A stretch of 32,188 nucleotides of DNA from a virus. Taxonomy: Duplodnaviria; Caudoviricetes. The stretch spans positions 1-32,188 of IMG/VR virus record IMGVR_UViG_3300022074_005601; one strand, written 5' to 3'. Positions 751 to 29,297 of this stretch are shown here, piece by piece; the stretch's first letter is position 1; each line of letters opens with the position of its first letter. Below the pieces are notes generated by a model, which saw only the letters and a list, made by a program, of their open reading frames with translations, was not told the origin of the DNA and searched no databases. Made by a program: the position numbers and the translations under genes.

Positions 751-1635
751 TTGTTAAAATTGGAATATTATGAACTAGAACCAGAAGATAATACTTTCAA
801 TCTTCTAGTAGCAGATATAACTCATAAATGTAATATGGAATGCTCGAACTGTTATATTCCTAACAGAGACATTCCAGATATGAATGAACAGCTGCTTTAC
901 AAATTTTTACGAAAATTACCTAACCGAATAGTTGTACGATTGATTGGTGCTGAACCAACCATGCGTAAAGATCTTCCAGATTTGATTACAGAGATCAAGA
1001 AGTGTGGCCACAATGTTAGTCTTACCACAAATGGATTGAAGTTAGCTAGTAAAAAGTATCTGAACAGTTTAAAATCAAGTGGTTTAAGAATGGTTTTAAT
1101 ATCTATGAATGGAGCTGATGATCCAGACATCTATAAAGTTATGGATGATGGAAGAGAATATTCTGATCTCAAAGTAAAAGCTCTAATCAATTGTATGGAA
1201 GCAAACATGATTGTTAATACTGGTACAATAGTTGCAAAAGGTGTTAACGAATCAGTAATGAAAAAACAAGTTGATTTAGTTTATAAGTGTATGAAAGAGA
1301 CTGGATATAAACCACGACTCGTTCCTCTTCTCAGAATGAAAAGCGTTGGATATATTGGTCGTCATATGGAAGGTAAATCATATAATGTAGACGAACTAGA
1401 AGATTTGTTTTTGTCACAATGTCCAGATTTCAAAGAAGACACCACTTGGGCTCCTAATTCTGGAACACTATGTAAACTATATACGGATGGAAATGTTTAC
1501 GTAAGATTAATTGATTGGTCCATTGATGAAGAAGGTGTACCAGATTCAGGTAATGAGTTACGCGGCCGCATTACTCCTGATTGGAAGGTGGCACCATTTT
1601 TTGAGCATGTAAAACAAAATGAATTCCAATATTAA
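751..1635 (+). CDS. radical SAM enzyme (MoaA-like core, no auxiliary cluster domain)
   Basis: CxxxCxxC (CNMECSNC), GAEP (GGE-motif equivalent), TTNG and ISMNG strands. The TTG start is uncertain. Confidence 0.9.
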   Translation: MLKLEYYELEPEDNTFNLLVADITHKCNMECSNCYIPNRDIPDMNEQLLYKFLRKLPNRIVVRLIGAEPTMRKDLPDLITEIKKCGHNVSLTTNGLKLASKKYLNSLKSSGLRMVLISMNGADDPDIYKVMDDGREYSDLKVKALINCMEANMIVNTGTIVAKGVNESVMKKQVDLVYKCMKETGYKPRLVPLLRMKSVGYIGRHMEGKSYNVDELEDLFLSQCPDFKEDTTWAPNSGTLCKLYTDGNVYVRLIDWSIDEEGVPDSGNELRGRITPDWKVAPFFEHVKQNEFQY

Positions 1636-2185
1636 CTCAATAACATTATCTCCTGATGACCTTGACTTTGACAGGTATTTGTTAAAGGTCGAAAGGCTTT
1701 GTCTTGGCATTAATGATACTTTATATTCAAATCCCCATCGGCTAAAAATAGATGAGTGGGTTGGCGTTACAGTATATATTGATGAATACGATGAAGTATA
1801 TGGGTTTTCATCTATAAGTTATAGAAAAAACTTTGGTAGAGGAGCCAGAATACTTAATAGATTTTATAAAGATCCCAAGTATCGTTTTGAAAATAATAAG
1901 AGATCTCTATCTCTTGCTACATTATCTATGCTTAAGGATCAAGTAGCTTTGTGCGAACAACTGGGATATCAATATGCGTTTATGAGCAGAGACTCAAAAA
2001 CTATAAAAGCGTGGCATCATTACTCAAAGTATTTTCAATTTAGAGAATGGAACGTATCTGATAAATATTATCATATGATCAAAGATTCGTGGCAGCAAAT
2101 TATATGGACACCATTGGTTGATAATGCTGAGCCAACTATGCAATCATTAACAAAAGAGGAATATAATGAATTACAAAAAACTTAA
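1619..2185 (+). CDS. GNAT-fold acyltransferase-like protein
   Basis: VYGFSSI strand, RFYKDPKYR motif-A-like segment, then helix and LGYQYAFMS; overlaps both neighbours. Confidence 0.55.
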   Translation: MNSNINSITLSPDDLDFDRYLLKVERLCLGINDTLYSNPHRLKIDEWVGVTVYIDEYDEVYGFSSISYRKNFGRGARILNRFYKDPKYRFENNKRSLSLATLSMLKDQVALCEQLGYQYAFMSRDSKTIKAWHHYSKYFQFREWNVSDKYYHMIKDSWQQIIWTPLVDNAEPTMQSLTKEEYNELQKT

Positions 2186-3026
2186 AGTGGGGTATCAAGT
2201 CGAAAATGTAAATTATGATAGTCCAGAGGATGCAAATAAGATTAAAGAGTTGATAGGAGAAGGTAGACTAGTAGTAGTCAAAAATAACGCCCATGTTCCA
2301 GCTAAAGATCTTGTTTCTTTATACACAAAAATTGGTGATGTTGTTGCTCAGTCTGATAAAGTAGTAGGTAGTGGAGTAGACGGATATCAAGAGCTTGTAA
2401 GAGTGAGAGCTAATGGTTTATTCAAAGGCGCAGAAGATGGTGAACTTGAGTGGCATTCTGCAGGTATGAATAGACATGGAGCAGAAGATGTAGTAGCAAT
2501 GTATATGAACAAACCTGCTGAATCTGGTGGCGACACTTATTTTAGCGACTTTCAATCTGCATATGATGATTATGAAGATAAGGACACAGTCGATTCTTTA
2601 CAAAGTAAAATGAGAACATATTCTGATGAGAGAAGTTTAAAAGCTAAACATTATGAAAAAGTATTCAATGATGAGGAAACTTATAGAAACTTCAAAGACA
2701 TTGACGGGGTTGCTGCTCACACCAAAGAAGTTGAGACTAAAAGTCTAGTTACAACTCATCCTATTAACAATAAAAAAGGGTTCTATTATCCTTGGGTTGT
2801 TATTAGAGGATTTGATGGAATGGATAGGAGAGAAGGACATACTACATACTTTAAAATTAAAGAACACGTAATGGATGATAAGTATGTTTATAAGCACCAA
2901 TGGGATAACTATGATATTTGCTTAAGCGATCAACATCATAGTTTACACAGGAGAGATGCGTATGATGGAGACCGTGAATTATGGAGAGCTGGAATCTGGT
3001 TTAGATCTGAGGCAAAGTCTGCTTGA
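2166..3026 (+). CDS. TauD/TfdA-family Fe(II)/2OG enzyme with HxA motif (candidate halogenase)
   Basis: WHSA (His97, Ala99) in place of WHxD; GGDTYFSD; HPIN; HQW..DICLSDQHHSLHRR; RELWR. Confidence 0.85.
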   Translation: MNYKKLKVGYQVENVNYDSPEDANKIKELIGEGRLVVVKNNAHVPAKDLVSLYTKIGDVVAQSDKVVGSGVDGYQELVRVRANGLFKGAEDGELEWHSAGMNRHGAEDVVAMYMNKPAESGGDTYFSDFQSAYDDYEDKDTVDSLQSKMRTYSDERSLKAKHYEKVFNDEETYRNFKDIDGVAAHTKEVETKSLVTTHPINNKKGFYYPWVVIRGFDGMDRREGHTTYFKIKEHVMDDKYVYKHQWDNYDICLSDQHHSLHRRDAYDGDRELWRAGIWFRSEAKSA

Positions 3027-3663
3027 CAAAGGGTTAGTTCGAATTCAATGTGAATATCCTATCACGATGAAAGAATTTGAATCTTTAGCTCACTCATTAG
3101 GCAAACCTCTCGTCACTTCTAAGCATGTTCTCAACGAAGCAAGAACTGTTCAGGAACTAAGTAACAACGGCTTGTTTGGAGATGGAGAAGTAGAGTGGCA
3201 TCATGACTGGAGCTATGGGCGAGGTAACTATTTTGGTACTGTTCTTTACAATGTAGAGAATGCTCATTTGTCTGAAACATGGTTTTGTGATATGTCCAAA
3301 GCTCCAGATAGTTTAAAAAAGATGTACAAAAATTGTATTGGAAGTTACTATCCTCCAAAACATTTACAAGAAGCATGCTTTAACGAAAAACAACTTCGCA
3401 TACTAAAAAAACAAAAAGTATCAAGACCATTTATTATTAATCATCATGTTACTGGTGAAGAGATTCTCTATTGTTCTATTGGTTCAATTAGAGATATGCC
3501 AGAAGAAGGTTTGGGTCCCATAAAACGTTGGGCTGAAGAAAATTGTTTTAAGTACAAATGGGAATCTAACGATATCTTGTTATGGGATAATCTAAAAATG
3601 ATGCACAAGCGTTTTGCTTTTGAAGGTACTAGATTTTTATGGAGAACACAATTTTTGATATGA
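2956..3663 (+). CDS. TauD/TfdA-family dioxygenase (canonical HxD)
   Basis: WHHD, TWFCDM, KWESNDILLWDN..MMHKR, RFLWR. The start may be 2962 or 2965. Confidence 0.88.
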   Translation: MRMMETVNYGELESGLDLRQSLLDKGLVRIQCEYPITMKEFESLAHSLGKPLVTSKHVLNEARTVQELSNNGLFGDGEVEWHHDWSYGRGNYFGTVLYNVENAHLSETWFCDMSKAPDSLKKMYKNCIGSYYPPKHLQEACFNEKQLRILKKQKVSRPFIINHHVTGEEILYCSIGSIRDMPEEGLGPIKRWAEENCFKYKWESNDILLWDNLKMMHKRFAFEGTRFLWRTQFLI

Positions 3664-4373
3664 AGATTTTAATTAGCAATCCGAGGCAAGGATCTAGTTG
3701 GGCATATCCTTATTTCAAAAAATATAATGAGGAACAAACACTTTGTAAATCTCCAGAGCATTTTTCAGAATATTTACTTGAAGCTAAAAATGCAGCTAAG
3801 TATTTAGGTAAAGCGGCATTAGAAAGAGAAAATGCTCGTAATATTACTTTAGAACAAAAAATCAATAACATTGAACAACATCGAATGAATGGTTTTGAAT
3901 TCAACATGAAGATTCATGCTTTTCATCTATTTTATAGATATGGTGATGGAGTAGTGTATGATTGGTTTAAAGAGTTTTATTCGAATGCAGAAATATATAT
4001 TATTCGTAGAAAAGATATGTACAGAGCATATTTGAGCTTATTAACTCATCTTACAAAAGGCAGAGGATATTGGCATAACTGTGGCCACGAAGAAGCTGAA
4101 TTGATTAGAGCTTGTAGCAAGTTTGAATTTAAACATAATGAACCTATGTGGAAGTCTTTTAAACACGTTAACAATTGTATGGATAAAGTACAAGGAACAA
4201 TTTTATATCTTGAAGATATTAGTGATGAATATTTAAGTGATCTTCTCGGAATAAAGATTGAACAAAAAATTCATAAGTGGAATATCAATTATGAAATGTT
4301 TTATACAAAAAAAGAACTAAATACTATTAGAGATATTATCGACAAGGGGTACAATAATGTCGTCCCCAATTGA
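3660..4373 (+). CDS. PAPS-dependent sulfotransferase-like protein (Stf0-like)
   Basis: 5'-PSB loop SNPRQGSSW, 3'-PB-like IIRRKDMYRAYLS, and LYLED. Start ATG 3660 overlaps the upstream TGA (ATGA). Confidence 0.65.
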   Translation: MKILISNPRQGSSWAYPYFKKYNEEQTLCKSPEHFSEYLLEAKNAAKYLGKAALERENARNITLEQKINNIEQHRMNGFEFNMKIHAFHLFYRYGDGVVYDWFKEFYSNAEIYIIRRKDMYRAYLSLLTHLTKGRGYWHNCGHEEAELIRACSKFEFKHNEPMWKSFKHVNNCMDKVQGTILYLEDISDEYLSDLLGIKIEQKIHKWNINYEMFYTKKELNTIRDIIDKGYNNVVPN

Positions 4374-4851
4374 AATTTATGACGGTATCAAAGAATATCC
4401 TAAACAACAATTGTTGGAAGAGTACAATCTTTTGAAAGATAATGAAAAAGATTATGCTGATTCTATTACACCAACAGGAGTTCCGTACTGGAAAGTTATT
4501 CGTGGTGATGATATGATATCAGAGTTTGCAGCCAAGGTAGCAAATTATTTTAAAAAAACATATAATATTGAAGGTAAAGTAGATGGAAGATTTTATAGAC
4601 TTCTAGCTAATGCAACACTACCTTATCACACAGATCGATCAACACAGTGTTCTGTTAATATGATTCTGTCAGAAGGACAAGCTCCAGTAAAATTTAAAGT
4701 TAATGGAGTCGAGACTGAATATCTATACGACATAGCTCTATTGAATACACAAGTAGAGCACAGTGTTCAGAATGGTGAAGAAGACAGAATTATTTTTAAG
4801 ATTTCAGTGTTTGATGAATCCTATGATTCAGTAGCTGCAAAGATTAACTAA
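4357..4851 (+). CDS. small 2OG-Fe(II) oxygenase (cupin/AspH-like)
   Basis: LPYHTD, distal EHSVQN, RIIFKIS. Confidence 0.8.
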   Translation: MSSPIEIYDGIKEYPKQQLLEEYNLLKDNEKDYADSITPTGVPYWKVIRGDDMISEFAAKVANYFKKTYNIEGKVDGRFYRLLANATLPYHTDRSTQCSVNMILSEGQAPVKFKVNGVETEYLYDIALLNTQVEHSVQNGEEDRIIFKISVFDESYDSVAAKIN

Positions 4852-5302
4852 CACATCCTACTATGTGAATTCTTTCTTCAAAAGAGGCATTCAAAGCTGT
4901 GTGCCTCTTTCTTGTATCTATTACATAATGATTACCATCAGCAGGATATCTTTTCAACTCATCATCTATAATGAACATGCAATTCGTATTAGTGATAAGA
5001 GGAATGTGAACTCTTATAGACATGTCTCTATGATATGAGTAGCACGTTTTTGGCTTTAATACCATTACACGAGTTCGGAACATCTTCAGATCTGAAATAA
5101 CAGAGTTTGTATATTTCAGCTGAGGAAAACAAAACTCTGTGAAGTCTTCAGCTTTGTGGTTGATATTGTTATCCTGCCACGTTACTCTTTTTTCATGAAC
5201 ACCATAAAAGTGATCTTCCCCACTAACTGTCTGCAGGCCTATTCGATCTTCATAATCTGGAAGTAGTTCAAACTCTAAAAGAATTCTATCAATGTCAATC
5301 AT
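4844..5302 (-). CDS. aspartyl/asparaginyl beta-hydroxylase-like 2OG-Fe(II) oxygenase
   Basis: RTRVMVL, YSYHRD, RVHIPLITN, IDTRKRHTALN, RIHIV. Confidence 0.85.
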   Translation of the reverse strand: MIDIDRILLEFELLPDYEDRIGLQTVSGEDHFYGVHEKRVTWQDNNINHKAEDFTEFCFPQLKYTNSVISDLKMFRTRVMVLKPKTCYSYHRDMSIRVHIPLITNTNCMFIIDDELKRYPADGNHYVIDTRKRHTALNASFEERIHIVGCVS

Positions 5303-7505: not shown

Positions 7506-7701
7506 GTGGAAAAAAGCCTCACTGGATAGTGGTCTTAGTCAAATGAAACTGAGAAACTTCTTTCGAGATTGTAAAGAGTTGCTTGAAGAGAATGGTGAAG
7601 AAGATGCGGCCTTTTACTTCGAGCAAGTTATGGATGAGATTAACGAAGGTCGATCTCTTCCAGGAGATAAACGAAACGTGTCTAAGGTATTAGGTTTGTG
7701 A
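7483..7701 (+). CDS. hypothetical protein
   Basis: GAGGAG RBS supports ATG 7483 (MSNQRGGKWK) rather than 7378. Confidence 0.7.
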   Translation: MSNQRGGKWKKASLDSGLSQMKLRNFFRDCKELLEENGEEDAAFYFEQVMDEINEGRSLPGDKRNVSKVLGL

Positions 7702-8174
7702 TGAACACATCTAACTTGTGGAAGAAAGTAAAAAAAATGGATTTAGGGAACCCCGTAATCACAGCTCTTGTAGGATTAGTTATTTTCTACATTGGTCTTA
7801 AAACATTCTCAGGCGGAATGAAATCTATGGGTAACATGGAACATCTTTCCTGGTTCACTGGTAACATATTCTATATGTTTATTGGTGGTATTGTGATGAC
7901 ATTGTTATGGCAGTCATCATCACTTTCTACTACAGCCATTATTGCTTTGGTTGCTAGTGGAGCAATTCCTCTACCGGCTGCAATCGCATGTGTACTGGGA
8001 GCCAACATTGGAACAACTGGTACTATCTGGCTTGCTGGTCTACTAGTTTCGGATGGCATACCGAAAGGAGACACGCTACGAATAGCTATAGCCCATACAG
8101 GTGTCAATCTGTTTATGGCTGCAACACTTCTACCATTTGTGCATCGAATAGCACAATTCCTAGGTCGATTCTAA
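7698..8174 (+). CDS. Na+/phosphate cotransporter family (NptA/SLC34-like), single repeat
   Basis: GLKTFSGGM, LWQSSSLSTT, LGANIGTTGT, AHTGVNL; hydrophobic throughout. The start is uncertain (7698/7701/7737). Confidence 0.88.
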   Translation: MMNTSNLWKKVKKMDLGNPVITALVGLVIFYIGLKTFSGGMKSMGNMEHLSWFTGNIFYMFIGGIVMTLLWQSSSLSTTAIIALVASGAIPLPAAIACVLGANIGTTGTIWLAGLLVSDGIPKGDTLRIAIAHTGVNLFMAATLLPFVHRIAQFLGRF

Positions 8175-15274: not shown

Positions 15275-15580
15275 ATGATTGAAGTTACAGATAATGCAAA
15301 GCAATATTTGGATAGTGTCAGAAACGATGATTATGTGACCTTGGGAGTAAAAGGTGGAGGATGTTCTGGATTTCAATATGTTTGGGATTTCAAAAAGAAC
15401 TGGCCAGATGTAAATTGGAGTGAGCCTTATAAAAATGTACTTGTATTAGATCCTATGGCTGAAATGTTTGTTGCAGGATGTACAATAGACTATGTAAATG
15501 AACTTGGTGGATCTTATTTAAAAGTAGTGAACCCAAATGCTACTGCATCATGCGGATGCGGTGAAAGTTTTGCGGTATAG
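15275..15580 (+). CDS. iscA: A-type Fe-S cluster carrier (IscA/HesB/ErpA family)
   Basis: GVKGGGCSGFQY; IDY; NPNATASCGCGESF. Confidence 0.95.
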   Translation: MIEVTDNAKQYLDSVRNDDYVTLGVKGGGCSGFQYVWDFKKNWPDVNWSEPYKNVLVLDPMAEMFVAGCTIDYVNELGGSYLKVVNPNATASCGCGESFAV

Positions 15581-15589
15581 GAGAATGTT

Positions 15590-16657
15590 ATGCCCCCTAG
15601 AAATCATATGAATTGGATAAAACAACCTAATATAGAATACATCTCAAGTGAGTGTTACAATAACGCAGAAATATTTGAACAGGAACAAAAAGAAATATTC
15701 AGTAAAGTCTGGATACCCGTATGTCATATCAGCGAGATGTACGAAAAAGGAAACTACAGAACAACACAAATAGCAGGACAAAATGTTATTGCATACAATA
15801 CAGGTGAACTTGGTGCAAGAGCATTTATCGATAATGGGCCCCAGATGCCTTCTGGCAAATTGTGGAACGATTCAACCTTTGGTAAAGAACTACACTGTGA
15901 AGTAAAACATGGAGGAATGGTATGGGTCACGCTAGATTCTAATCCATCGCAGTCAGTTGAAGAATGGACTGCTGGTGCGTTTGAATGTATCGCTGATGCA
16001 ATTGATACCGAAGAAATGGAAGTCTTCCATTACCACAAAGCTATCATTGATACAAATTACAAATTGTGGCATGATACAAACAGTGAATTCTATCATGACT
16101 TTATGCATTACTTCAACAGAGTATCAGGATTCAATGATGAATATTTTGCTCGTAAGAACATTCCGTTTGACAATGGTCATGTTAATGTTAGTAGCTTTAC
16201 TGTTAACTATGAAGAGTATGAAGGCTTTGACGATAGAGGTGAATTATCCTTTCCTAACTTGCCACCCAATCAATGGTACATGGTTGACTTGTTCCCAGGG
16301 TTCAATTTTAACTTACGTGGGAGCGCATATCGTAGCGACTCAGTAACTCCTCTTGGTCCAAACAAAGTGCTTATTGAGTTCCGCGGATATGGACTTCGTA
16401 AAGATACAAAAGAAGAAAGACTGACTCGGATTAAGCATCATAACTCAATCTGGGGTCCTTTTGGACGTAACTTACATGAAGATCTAATAGGTGTTGCAGG
16501 TCAAGGTACAACAATGCGTGAAGGAACAGAAGCAAGAAATATTTTGCATGGCCGGCATGAAAACGGAACCATTCATGATGAAGTGGGTATGAGGCATTAC
16601 TATAGTGCGTGGGGTGATATGTTAGGAGTGAATCCAGCAAGGCCGCTTGCTGCATAG
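15590..16657 (+). CDS. msmA: ring-hydroxylating oxygenase alpha subunit, methanesulfonate monooxygenase MsmA-like, lacking Rieske ligands
   Basis: EQKEIFSKVWIPVCHISE; NYKLWHDTNSEFYHDFMH; LFPG; TPLGP; HEDL. There is no CxH...CxxH. The family call is strong; the msmA subfamily call is from recall. Confidence 0.7.
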   Translation: MPPRNHMNWIKQPNIEYISSECYNNAEIFEQEQKEIFSKVWIPVCHISEMYEKGNYRTTQIAGQNVIAYNTGELGARAFIDNGPQMPSGKLWNDSTFGKELHCEVKHGGMVWVTLDSNPSQSVEEWTAGAFECIADAIDTEEMEVFHYHKAIIDTNYKLWHDTNSEFYHDFMHYFNRVSGFNDEYFARKNIPFDNGHVNVSSFTVNYEEYEGFDDRGELSFPNLPPNQWYMVDLFPGFNFNLRGSAYRSDSVTPLGPNKVLIEFRGYGLRKDTKEERLTRIKHHNSIWGPFGRNLHEDLIGVAGQGTTMREGTEARNILHGRHENGTIHDEVGMRHYYSAWGDMLGVNPARPLAA

Positions 16658-28415: not shown

Positions 28416-28623
28416 AGTTTCAACAGGAGAGGAGTGGGATGTTAATTGTTCATTTCATGAACTAGCTCCTATGTTAGAAGATGATGATGTTATCAAAATT
28501 CTTTCCACACCAAAGATTGTAAGTGGTGTGGGTACTTTGCATGGCAAAGTTCCAGATGGATTCAAAGATAAATTAAATCAAATTAAAAAGACTTCTGGTA
28601 AAGGTAATACAATTAAGACATGA
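28393..28623 (+). CDS. FmdB-like small protein (degenerate, Cys-poor)
   Basis: MPNYT....TGE; PKIVSG; PDGFKDKL..IKK; located directly upstream of phoH. Confidence 0.6.
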   Translation: MPNYTLRRVSTGEEWDVNCSFHELAPMLEDDDVIKILSTPKIVSGVGTLHGKVPDGFKDKLNQIKKTSGKGNTIKT

Positions 28624-29297
28624 AGACTGCACCTGTAAGACAAGATGAACTCTTTGAGTATGAACCACTCACCGAAAATCAAAAGAAGGCTTTTGATGCG
28701 TGGGACGATGGAGATAATTTGGCTCTAGTAGGTTCAGCTGGTACTGGTAAAACATTTCTTGCTATGTTACTAGCTTTGGAATTAGTTACTGATAAGCAGC
28801 TGCCACAAGAAAAGATTACATTATTCAGATCCGTTGTTCCTACAAGAGAGATGGGATTCTTACCTGGTTCAGTTGAAGAGAAAAAGGCTGTATTTGAAAC
28901 TCCTTACAAAAATATTATTGAAGAGATTGTTCCTGGAGACCAATCATATAAAAGGATGCTCCACACACATCAATTTGAATTTACTACAACATCATTCATT
29001 CGAGGTCTTACAATAGATGATGCTGTTATCATTGTTGATGAAATGCAAAACTTGAACTTTCATGAACTCGATTCAGTAATGACTAGAGTAGGCCACAATT
29101 GTAGAATTATCTTTTGTGGAGACTACCATCAGTCAGACTTCAAAGAAGGACACGAACGAGAAGGTGTAATGAAGTTTATGAGAGTAATAGAACAACTAAG
29201 GAACTTCAACGTAGTTCAGTTTGGCTGGGATGATATTGTAAGATCGGATTTTGTCAGAGACTATATAATGACAAAGGAAATGTTAGGTATCAGATAA
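28620..29297 (+). CDS. phoH: PhoH-family ATPase
   Basis: GSAGTGKT, GFLPG, SFIRGLT, VDEMQN, TRVG, GD..QSD, DIVRS. Confidence 0.95.
   Translation: MKTAPVRQDELFEYEPLTENQKKAFDAWDDGDNLALVGSAGTGKTFLAMLLALELVTDKQLPQEKITLFRSVVPTREMGFLPGSVEEKKAVFETPYKNIIEEIVPGDQSYKRMLHTHQFEFTTTSFIRGLTIDDAVIIVDEMQNLNFHELDSVMTRVGHNCRIIFCGDYHQSDFKEGHEREGVMKFMRVIEQLRNFNVVQFGWDDIVRSDFVRDYIMTKEMLGIR

Follow-up and report, generated by a model that had tools for sequence, protein, structure and literature searches.

A 32,188-nucleotide (nt) stretch of viral DNA (IMG/VR record IMGVR_UViG_3300022074_005601, positions 1 to 32,188; the window is the whole of this stretch) encodes a TauD/TfdA-fold Fe(II)/2-oxoglutarate (2OG) enzyme in which alanine stands in place of the iron-binding aspartate (His-x-Ala; the HxA enzyme), next to a second TauD-fold enzyme of the canonical His-x-Asp type (HxD). 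Judged from its sequence and those of its relatives, the HxA enzyme is most likely a radical halogenase, predicted to take chloride or bromide at the open third iron position and to tailor the product of a gene cassette; we put the probability of this reading at roughly 0.45. Our analysis establishes the fold, the motif and its conservation, purifying selection, the structure of the cassette, and repeated loss of the HxA gene. The features of the enzyme are as follows.

2166..3026, + strand: HxA enzyme, TauD/TfdA-fold Fe(II)/2OG enzyme with His97-x-Ala99...His261 (PF02668, structural model, Foldseek, VIA)
2454..2462, + strand: His97-Ser98-Ala99, with Ala where the iron-binding Asp would stand (alignments)
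2535-2537, + strand: Thr124, invariant
2931..2948, + strand: Gln256, in a D-Q that replaces the usual W-D-N motif, through the distal His261 (both invariant in ungapped core sequences)
2973..2987, + strand: Arg270 and Arg274, invariant (roles via alignment to TauD-type enzymes)

The 286-residue product of this open reading frame (ORF) matches the Pfam TauD family (PF02668; E 3.6e-27, 96.4 bits against a cut-off of 27). An AlphaFold model built on a 78-sequence alignment has a mean confidence (pLDDT) of 90.2; its top Foldseek match is RdpA (6d0o, E 5.6e-19), with AAD and TauD also matched, and VIA aligns it to TauD (1gqw) over 255 residues (Z 25.0, root-mean-square deviation [rmsd] 2.9). The codons TGG CAT TCT GCA at 2451-2462 read W96-H97-S98-A99, just as the original prediction had it, and A99 aligns onto the Asp of W-H-x-D in AAD-2 and RdpA; the canonical His-x-Asp/Glu...His facial triad is therefore absent (Ala99). 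The distal His and the 2OG-binding Arg, also predicted to be retained, are intact: His261 lies in an LHRR that starts at residue 260, and Arg270 and Arg274 in an RELWR that starts at residue 270. Together with Thr124 the two Arg residues complete the invariant Thr/Arg set for 2OG binding; the individual roles (2OG, substrate binding) are those seen in TauD-type structures. The enzyme is not taurine dioxygenase proper by NCBIfam NF007104 (23.6 bits; cut-off 313), all NCBIfam models score far under cut-off, and PHROGs has no family for either TauD gene. The label "taurine dioxygenase" that some sources give to HxA-type proteins is likely wrong, whether or not they are halogenases.

Ala99 is present in all 82 homologues from the first search. 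All proteins and loci gathered form a pool of 294 distinct sequences, 284 of them with His97; within it, the core clade (scores of 300 bits or more; 45-100% identity to the window's HxA protein) has Ala99 in 120 of 120 sequences. The next shell (200-300 bits, n=11) has nine Ala, one Cys and one Asp, and below 200 bits Asn is dominant. Invariant columns number 32 of the 267 scored in the core, among them His97, Ala99, Thr124, Gln256, His261, Arg270 and Arg274; Ala is the majority residue in 10 columns, two of which (99 and 132) are invariant, and position 98 is variable. The codon at position 99 is GCA in 11, GCT in eight and GCC in four of 23 distinct HxA genes. The original prediction had remarked that GCA is two substitutions from an Asp codon, which is correct for GCA and carries no weight, since GCT or GCC, each a single substitution from an Asp codon, is used in 12 of the 23 genes. 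The ratio of nonsynonymous to synonymous substitution rates (dN/dS), taken from closest pairs only, is 0.04-0.09 for the three closest HxA pairs and similar (0.03-0.06) for the HxD gene; the medians of 0.27 and 0.28 rest on near-saturated pairs, and the HxD set behind them wrongly contained L024 and missed L005. A contig from an independent marine run of another study (X2) spans 2381-2600 with no differing letter. The HxA gene is under purifying selection, and Ala99 is selected. The checks proposed with the original prediction, on homologues and on sequence data, thus both came out in its favor, and an assembly error or private mutation, for which nothing speaks, is ruled out by the 82 homologues, the three Ala codons and the identical independent contig.

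Known halogenases supply the main argument for the proposed activity. Ala or Gly occupies the third position in all previously reported Fe/2OG halogenases, and AspX and BtnX, candidates picked by the His-x-Ala/Gly motif, proved to be halogenases (PMC13489965). Two His with a conserved Ala/Gly are found throughout the HxA core clade and in nine of the 11 next-shell sequences, and a motif that both marks known halogenases and predicted AspX and BtnX correctly supports the same assignment here; so does the strict retention of Ala while site 98 varies. In the predicted reaction, His97 and His261 would bind Fe(II) and Thr124 and Arg270 would hold 2OG; a halide would fill the space vacated by Asp, perhaps held by Gln256; and O2 would generate a halo-ferryl species to abstract a hydrogen atom and deliver the halogen. 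The substrate might be an N-acylated small molecule or lipid made by the GNAT-fold protein, radical SAM enzyme and HxD oxygenase encoded alongside, and the setting might be an infected alphaproteobacterial host in which halogenation is an optional late step.

The genes next to the HxA gene are these.

751..1635, + strand: radical SAM protein (CxxxCxxC) with a MoaA/Tes-like core (PF04055, E 2e-15; alignment; viral Atlas clusters)
1619..2185, + strand: GNAT-fold protein of 188 residues, predicted N-acyltransferase (model pLDDT 90.4, structural matches)
2962..3663, + strand: second TauD-fold enzyme, canonical His-x-Asp, WHHD at 3196-3207 (Pfam E 4e-20)
3639..4373, + strand: variable accessory gene (no match in Pfam, NCBIfam or PHROGs)
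4357..4851, + strand: small cupin-like accessory gene with an H-T-D...H pattern read by eye (no meaningful Pfam match)
4844..5302, - strand: Asp_Arg_Hydrox-family 2OG oxygenase, His-x-Asp (PF05118, E 3.9e-10)

Among 26 loci (25 fetched and the window, a few being near duplicates), the order radical SAM, GNAT-fold gene, HxA, HxD recurs in 20, sometimes with an inserted gene, and an Asp_Arg_Hydrox gene lies near the cassette in 13. In the other six the HxA-clade gene stands elsewhere, without the cassette; most such records are fragments. Starting instead from the HxD gene, a search returned 107 loci (27 viral, and the best 80 of 102 metagenomic) with 76 distinct HxD genes, of which 21 with less than 1.8 kb upstream were set aside. 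Upstream of the remaining 55 lies an HxA gene in 38, a distant His-x-Asn (HxN) enzyme in six, and neither in 11. Since these 11 loci are spread over at least five places on the HxD tree, and one of them (L174) retains a relic of the HxA 3' end, they represent losses of the HxA gene, which is accordingly an optional member of the cassette; loss at five or more places, with the rest of the cassette staying, fits an optional step. The six HxN-type loci also have a desaturase, a radical SAM gene of the same family and, often, an aspartate decarboxylase.

The HxD gene has the canonical site that had been predicted for the neighbor: WHHD, MHKR and RFLWR give a His-x-Asp...His site with the C-terminal Arg, and WH[HN]DWSY occurs in 83 of 84 HxD homologues. 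Its start is probably the ATG at 2962; the four closest homologues begin at the equivalent Met or one residue earlier. Over the resulting 65-nt overlap with the end of the HxA gene (2962-3026), the strand that encodes Arg270 and Arg274 is read in two frames; an HxA/HxD overlap recurs in L094, L116, L123 and L172, and as a relic in L174. Both genes belong to the TauD family, as implied when they were first called paralogs; recent duplicates they are not, being 27% identical and falling in separate tree groups, with HxD among the canonical W-D-N enzymes and away from the HxA clade. The radical SAM protein has no conserved auxiliary-cluster cysteines, and every NCBIfam match to it is far under cut-off. 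No Pfam match was found for the 188-residue protein; its Foldseek and VIA lists consist of GNAT-fold entries (best Z 11.4, rmsd 3.4, 151 residues aligned). The 3639..4373 product has an N-terminal motif that resembles a sulfotransferase loop, and the 4844-5302 product is close to a solved 182-residue beta-hydroxylase (PDB 7v4f, E 1.5e-17), which may give a lead to its substrate.

As the neighbors include an acyltransferase fold and desaturases, an acylated small molecule or lipid is suggested as the substrate. A nucleotide substrate, as for AdeV, or a role in DNA hypermodification is not favored: the cassette loci have no kinase, no base-modifying gene and no fixed link to replication genes.

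The wider family places the HxA clade in a lineage with a variable third position. In a FastTree phylogeny of 158 sequences the HxA group is one clade (support 0.997) that includes one Cys and one Glu tip, nested in a larger lineage marked by D-Q or E-Q for W-D-N (deep support modest, 0.74). Position 99 in that lineage is mostly Asn, with Ala in two further places, one of them the Oligoflexia protein P0082. Over the 284 sequences with His97, position 99 is Ala in 137, Asn in 89, Asp in 49, Glu in four, His in two, Gly in two and Cys in one; Ser, Thr, Val and Lys never occur. This range (metal ligands, or Ala/Gly only) argues for a live, tuned iron site. By its motif, Gln256 appears to share with Asp721 of AspH a place in the turn that precedes the distal His, and it could hold water or chloride. 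A profile comparison of the Gln256 family with the Asp_Arg_Hydrox family gave no alignment, nor did PDB searches yield one with AspH.

Formate reportedly rescues the D101A variant of TauD, and unusual sets of iron ligands occur in HygX and methylphosphonate synthase; a literature search on TauD third-ligand variants returned nothing relevant. Several observations weigh against a halogenase. The short motif yields false positives, as a mining preprint warns (10.64898/2026.01.20.700248), and AspH is a hydroxylase with just two His, its water kept in place by Asp721 (PMC10915816). WelO5, the nearest halogenase by structure, is a distant match (Z 9.2 versus Z 25.0 for TauD): none of the 20 best VIA rows (Z 13-25) is titled halogenase, WelO5 ranks 22nd and HalB 44th (Z 7.6), and no halogenase is among 26 PDB profile matches. 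No characterized TauD-fold or viral Fe/2OG halogenase was found in the literature searched, which leaves most subscription journals outside it. The sister clade is mostly Asn, keeps the other catalytic residues and has regained Asp in about 11 places (counted on the tree), and for these reasons the carboxylate looks optional across the whole Gln256 lineage. An HxN enzyme stands immediately before the same HxD gene in six of 55 loci, filling the HxA slot, and Ala and Asp alleles recombine within one cluster. Our odds balance two points in favor, the strong prior from the halogenase motif and the strictness of Ala, with two that tell against it, the Asn-bearing sister clade and the presence of HxN in the HxA slot.

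The same observations bear on the main alternative, an active hydroxylase or desaturase without halide transfer, with water, a substrate carboxylate or a spectator halide at the third position, as in AspH. It would have arisen when an Asn-to-Gln change at 256 made the carboxylate dispensable lineage-wide, and Asn, Ala and Asp forms would do related chemistry. Ala, Asn or Gly stands at position 99 in 220 of 243 sequences with Gln256 (Ala 130, Asn 88), compared with two of 33 others, 31 of which have Asp/Glu; these counts come from one lineage and from non-independent events. The 89 Asn99 sequences retain His261, Arg263, Arg270 and Arg274 at 100%, Gln256 at 99% and Thr124 at 96%; no TauD type other than HxN was seen in the bacterial clusters L063-L068, and it is HxN that replaces HxA in the cassette. 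The Asp721 that holds water in AspH lies four residues before the distal His725 (PMC10915816), and Gln256 would occupy the same turn, to judge from the motif. However, Gln is an amide and AspH needs a carboxylate, and carboxylate loss inactivates TauD, FIH and prolyl hydroxylase (PMC10915816). A free site, moreover, predicts Asp, Asn, Ser or Gly in the core clade, where Ala is without exception although half its codons sit one step from Asp. We regard such an oxygenase as a serious contender, possible rather than probable.

Natural Ala/Asp dimorphism occurs in a branch about 40% identical to the window's HxA protein and located outside the cassette. L024 (1689-2573), with W-H-N-D, and P0169, with W-H-N-A, share 90.8% identity. 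The 90%-identity cluster to which P0169 belongs has 16 members; among the 15 listed, 14 show the motif (eight Asp, six Ala); three members are mosaics of the two types. The more distant L025 carries Ala, so Asp is likely the derived state. The dimorphism, of which P0169 (Ala) and P0333 (Asp) form a natural pair, shows a site able to take a carboxylate back, which fits a halogenase/hydroxylase switch and equally a site with an optional carboxylate. In plants, the halogenase- and hydroxylase-motif genes DAH and DAHy-like are 88.5% identical, and DAHy-like is described as a likely pseudogene (PMC12346261).

These alleles also bear on whether another protein residue binds the iron, as a 2-His-1-Gln site through Gln256 or through a relocated carboxylate. 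A 2-His-1-Gln site is known in methylphosphonate synthase, and Gln256, His258, Met114, Glu93 and Asp91 are invariant in the core clade, where position 107 is always Asp/Glu. Gln256 is, however, also present in 20 Asp99 sequences, including the roughly 91%-identical allele; the nearest acid, Glu95, is conserved as Asp/Glu in no more than 90%; and Glu93, four residues up the strand, lies at a substrate-binding place in TauD. We consider another protein ligand unlikely.

Slightly less likely still is a non-catalytic binding or scaffold partner of the HxD enzyme. One subunit of TlxIJ is reportedly inactive. The HxA and HxD genes are adjacent and overlapping, as a partnership would predict, and a heterodimeric Fe/2OG oxygenase does exist (TlxIJ, by its PDB title), while a literature search on TlxI gave nothing relevant. 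A partner without catalysis is hard to square with invariant His97, His261, Thr124 and both Arg residues, with HxD genes that lack HxA in 11 of 55 loci, with HxA genes away from the cassette in six of 26 loci (most of these records fragments), or with a residue spectrum at position 99 that is not drift-like.

In bacterial genomes as well, one titled Pseudobdellovibrionaceae, related HxN enzymes have as neighbors desaturases, Asp_Arg_Hydrox genes and members of the GNAT family found in the cassette. Bacterial clusters at L026, L027/L063, L064-L068 and L070 contain up to three TauD genes of the HxN type (at least one), and a small protein that lacks a Pfam family and has a twin-arginine-like N-terminus recurs in them; phage islands hold similar small proteins without that N-terminus. 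The His-x-Asn class seems unstudied. One large phage tailoring island (L080:6785-20000; G303:C1) holds an aspartate decarboxylase, an HxN TauD, an HxD TauD, a desaturase, a radical SAM protein, an ATP-grasp protein, a PhyH protein, further oxygenases and a second desaturase; a separate HxA gene of the same genome adjoins the DNA polymerase. Tandem HxA gene pairs occur at L011:4375-6151 and from L179:7971 onward. An alignment-based scan of viral contigs succeeded; a second scan with distant HxA queries returned mostly the same contigs, and a single-sequence scan gave 10 pattern matches, none confirmed. In 185,579 species genomes, core-clade patterns found two loci, both HxN, a result whose reach is limited to those patterns and does not amount to absence from bacteria. 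Within one phylum, seven of 301 genomes matched in a profile search, with no HxA among the motifs read.

The window itself is a T4-like phage fragment by its phage families and virus record, and the runs in which this DNA occurs bear the labels marine, seawater or viral metagenome. This agrees with the phage-encoded pair in a chloride-rich habitat that was originally envisaged, except that the pair is not obligatory (HxA missing from 11 of 55 HxD loci, and HxA without the cassette in six of 26). One further feature bears on the host.

1-148, + strand: permuted (two-piece) transfer-messenger RNA (tmRNA), cut by the window's 5' end (Rfam RF04321, 53.7 bits)

ARAGORN missed this tmRNA. Its tag reading frame lies at 107-148, and the tag peptide, which looks alphaproteobacterial in type, suggests an alphaproteobacterial host. 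The only contig from RNA run X20, of 151 bases over 3102-3252, is no evidence of expression, and a promoter scan was at chance (28 versus 24.8). Elsewhere in the window, an IscA-like Fe-S biosynthesis gene (15275-15580) adjoins a ring-hydroxylating dioxygenase alpha-subunit domain (15590-16657; Pfam), and there are a short Na+/Pi-cotransporter-family gene (7698-8174) and a PhoH-like gene (28620-29297).

Taken together, and tentatively, marine T4-like phages may make a halogenated acyl metabolite in infected alphaproteobacteria. The enzyme would be the first viral and first TauD-fold radical halogenase, natural Ala/Asp alleles would switch chlorination and hydroxylation, and Gln256 would account for the carboxylate-free (Ala/Asn) sites of a large lineage, as yet unstudied, that spans phages and Bdellovibrionota-type bacteria. 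If the enzyme is a halogenase, radical C-H halogenation extends to viruses and to the TauD subfamily, a gene can be named as a source of the halogenated organics that marine infection releases, and biocatalysis gains a new scaffold. Otherwise, a widespread 2OG enzyme family works with Ala or Asn and no carboxylate ligand, and this restricts the His-x-Ala/Gly rule by which halogenases are now mined. The P0169/P0333 allele pair makes the choice between halogenase and hydroxylase directly testable.

Among known systems, the HxA enzyme is closest to the TauD/TfdA group (TauD of E. coli, RdpA/AAD-1, AAD-2, AtsK, Rv0097/ScoE, IsnB and CarC), with which it shares the fold (VIA Z 19-25, Foldseek E to 5.6e-19), both His, the G-G-x-T threonine and two C-terminal Arg; it differs in Ala for Asp, in S-D-Q for W-D-N, and in a structural identity of 12-20%. 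With the radical halogenases (SyrB2, CurA, WelO5, BesD/HalB, AdeV/AdaV, DAH, AspX and BtnX) it shares two His with Ala/Gly (PMC13489965) and a mixed occurrence with Asp-bearing relatives. In contrast to these it belongs to a different subfamily (WelO5 Z 9.2, HalB Z 7.6), is viral, has an Asn sister clade, and has no carrier protein in the loci examined. The atlas of Kipouros and Chang predicts TauD proteins (for example cluster 9, mostly actinomycetes) in which PF02668 is combined with 2-His-1-Ala/Gly, with 63 occurrences in its Fig. 1c file and no phage or virus entry there; the 15 rows examined of these 63 are all bacterial and without experimental annotation, and the likeness to HxA is one of description, not sequence. 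AspH (aspartyl/asparaginyl beta-hydroxylase) is likewise a 2OG enzyme whose natural iron site has two protein ligands, both His (PMC10915816), although of another subfamily, and Gln256 would stand in place of its second-sphere Asp721.

Marine phages offer two further comparisons; viral tauD itself is mentioned only as a sulfur gene in the available text of one virome paper (PMC8940887). VirX1 of cyanophage Syn10 is a marine-phage-encoded halogenase, but it is flavin-dependent, electrophilic and active on aromatics, unrelated to the HxA enzyme in fold and mechanism (PMC8407142). Pelagibacter phage Mosig EXVC030M, an isolated marine T4-like phage, differs from the window in gene order and in a TauD gene that is His-x-Asn and 25% identical, and it carries a similar island (MT647606.1, genes 72-84) of TauD-like, radical SAM, acetyltransferase, desaturase and Asp_Arg_Hydrox genes.

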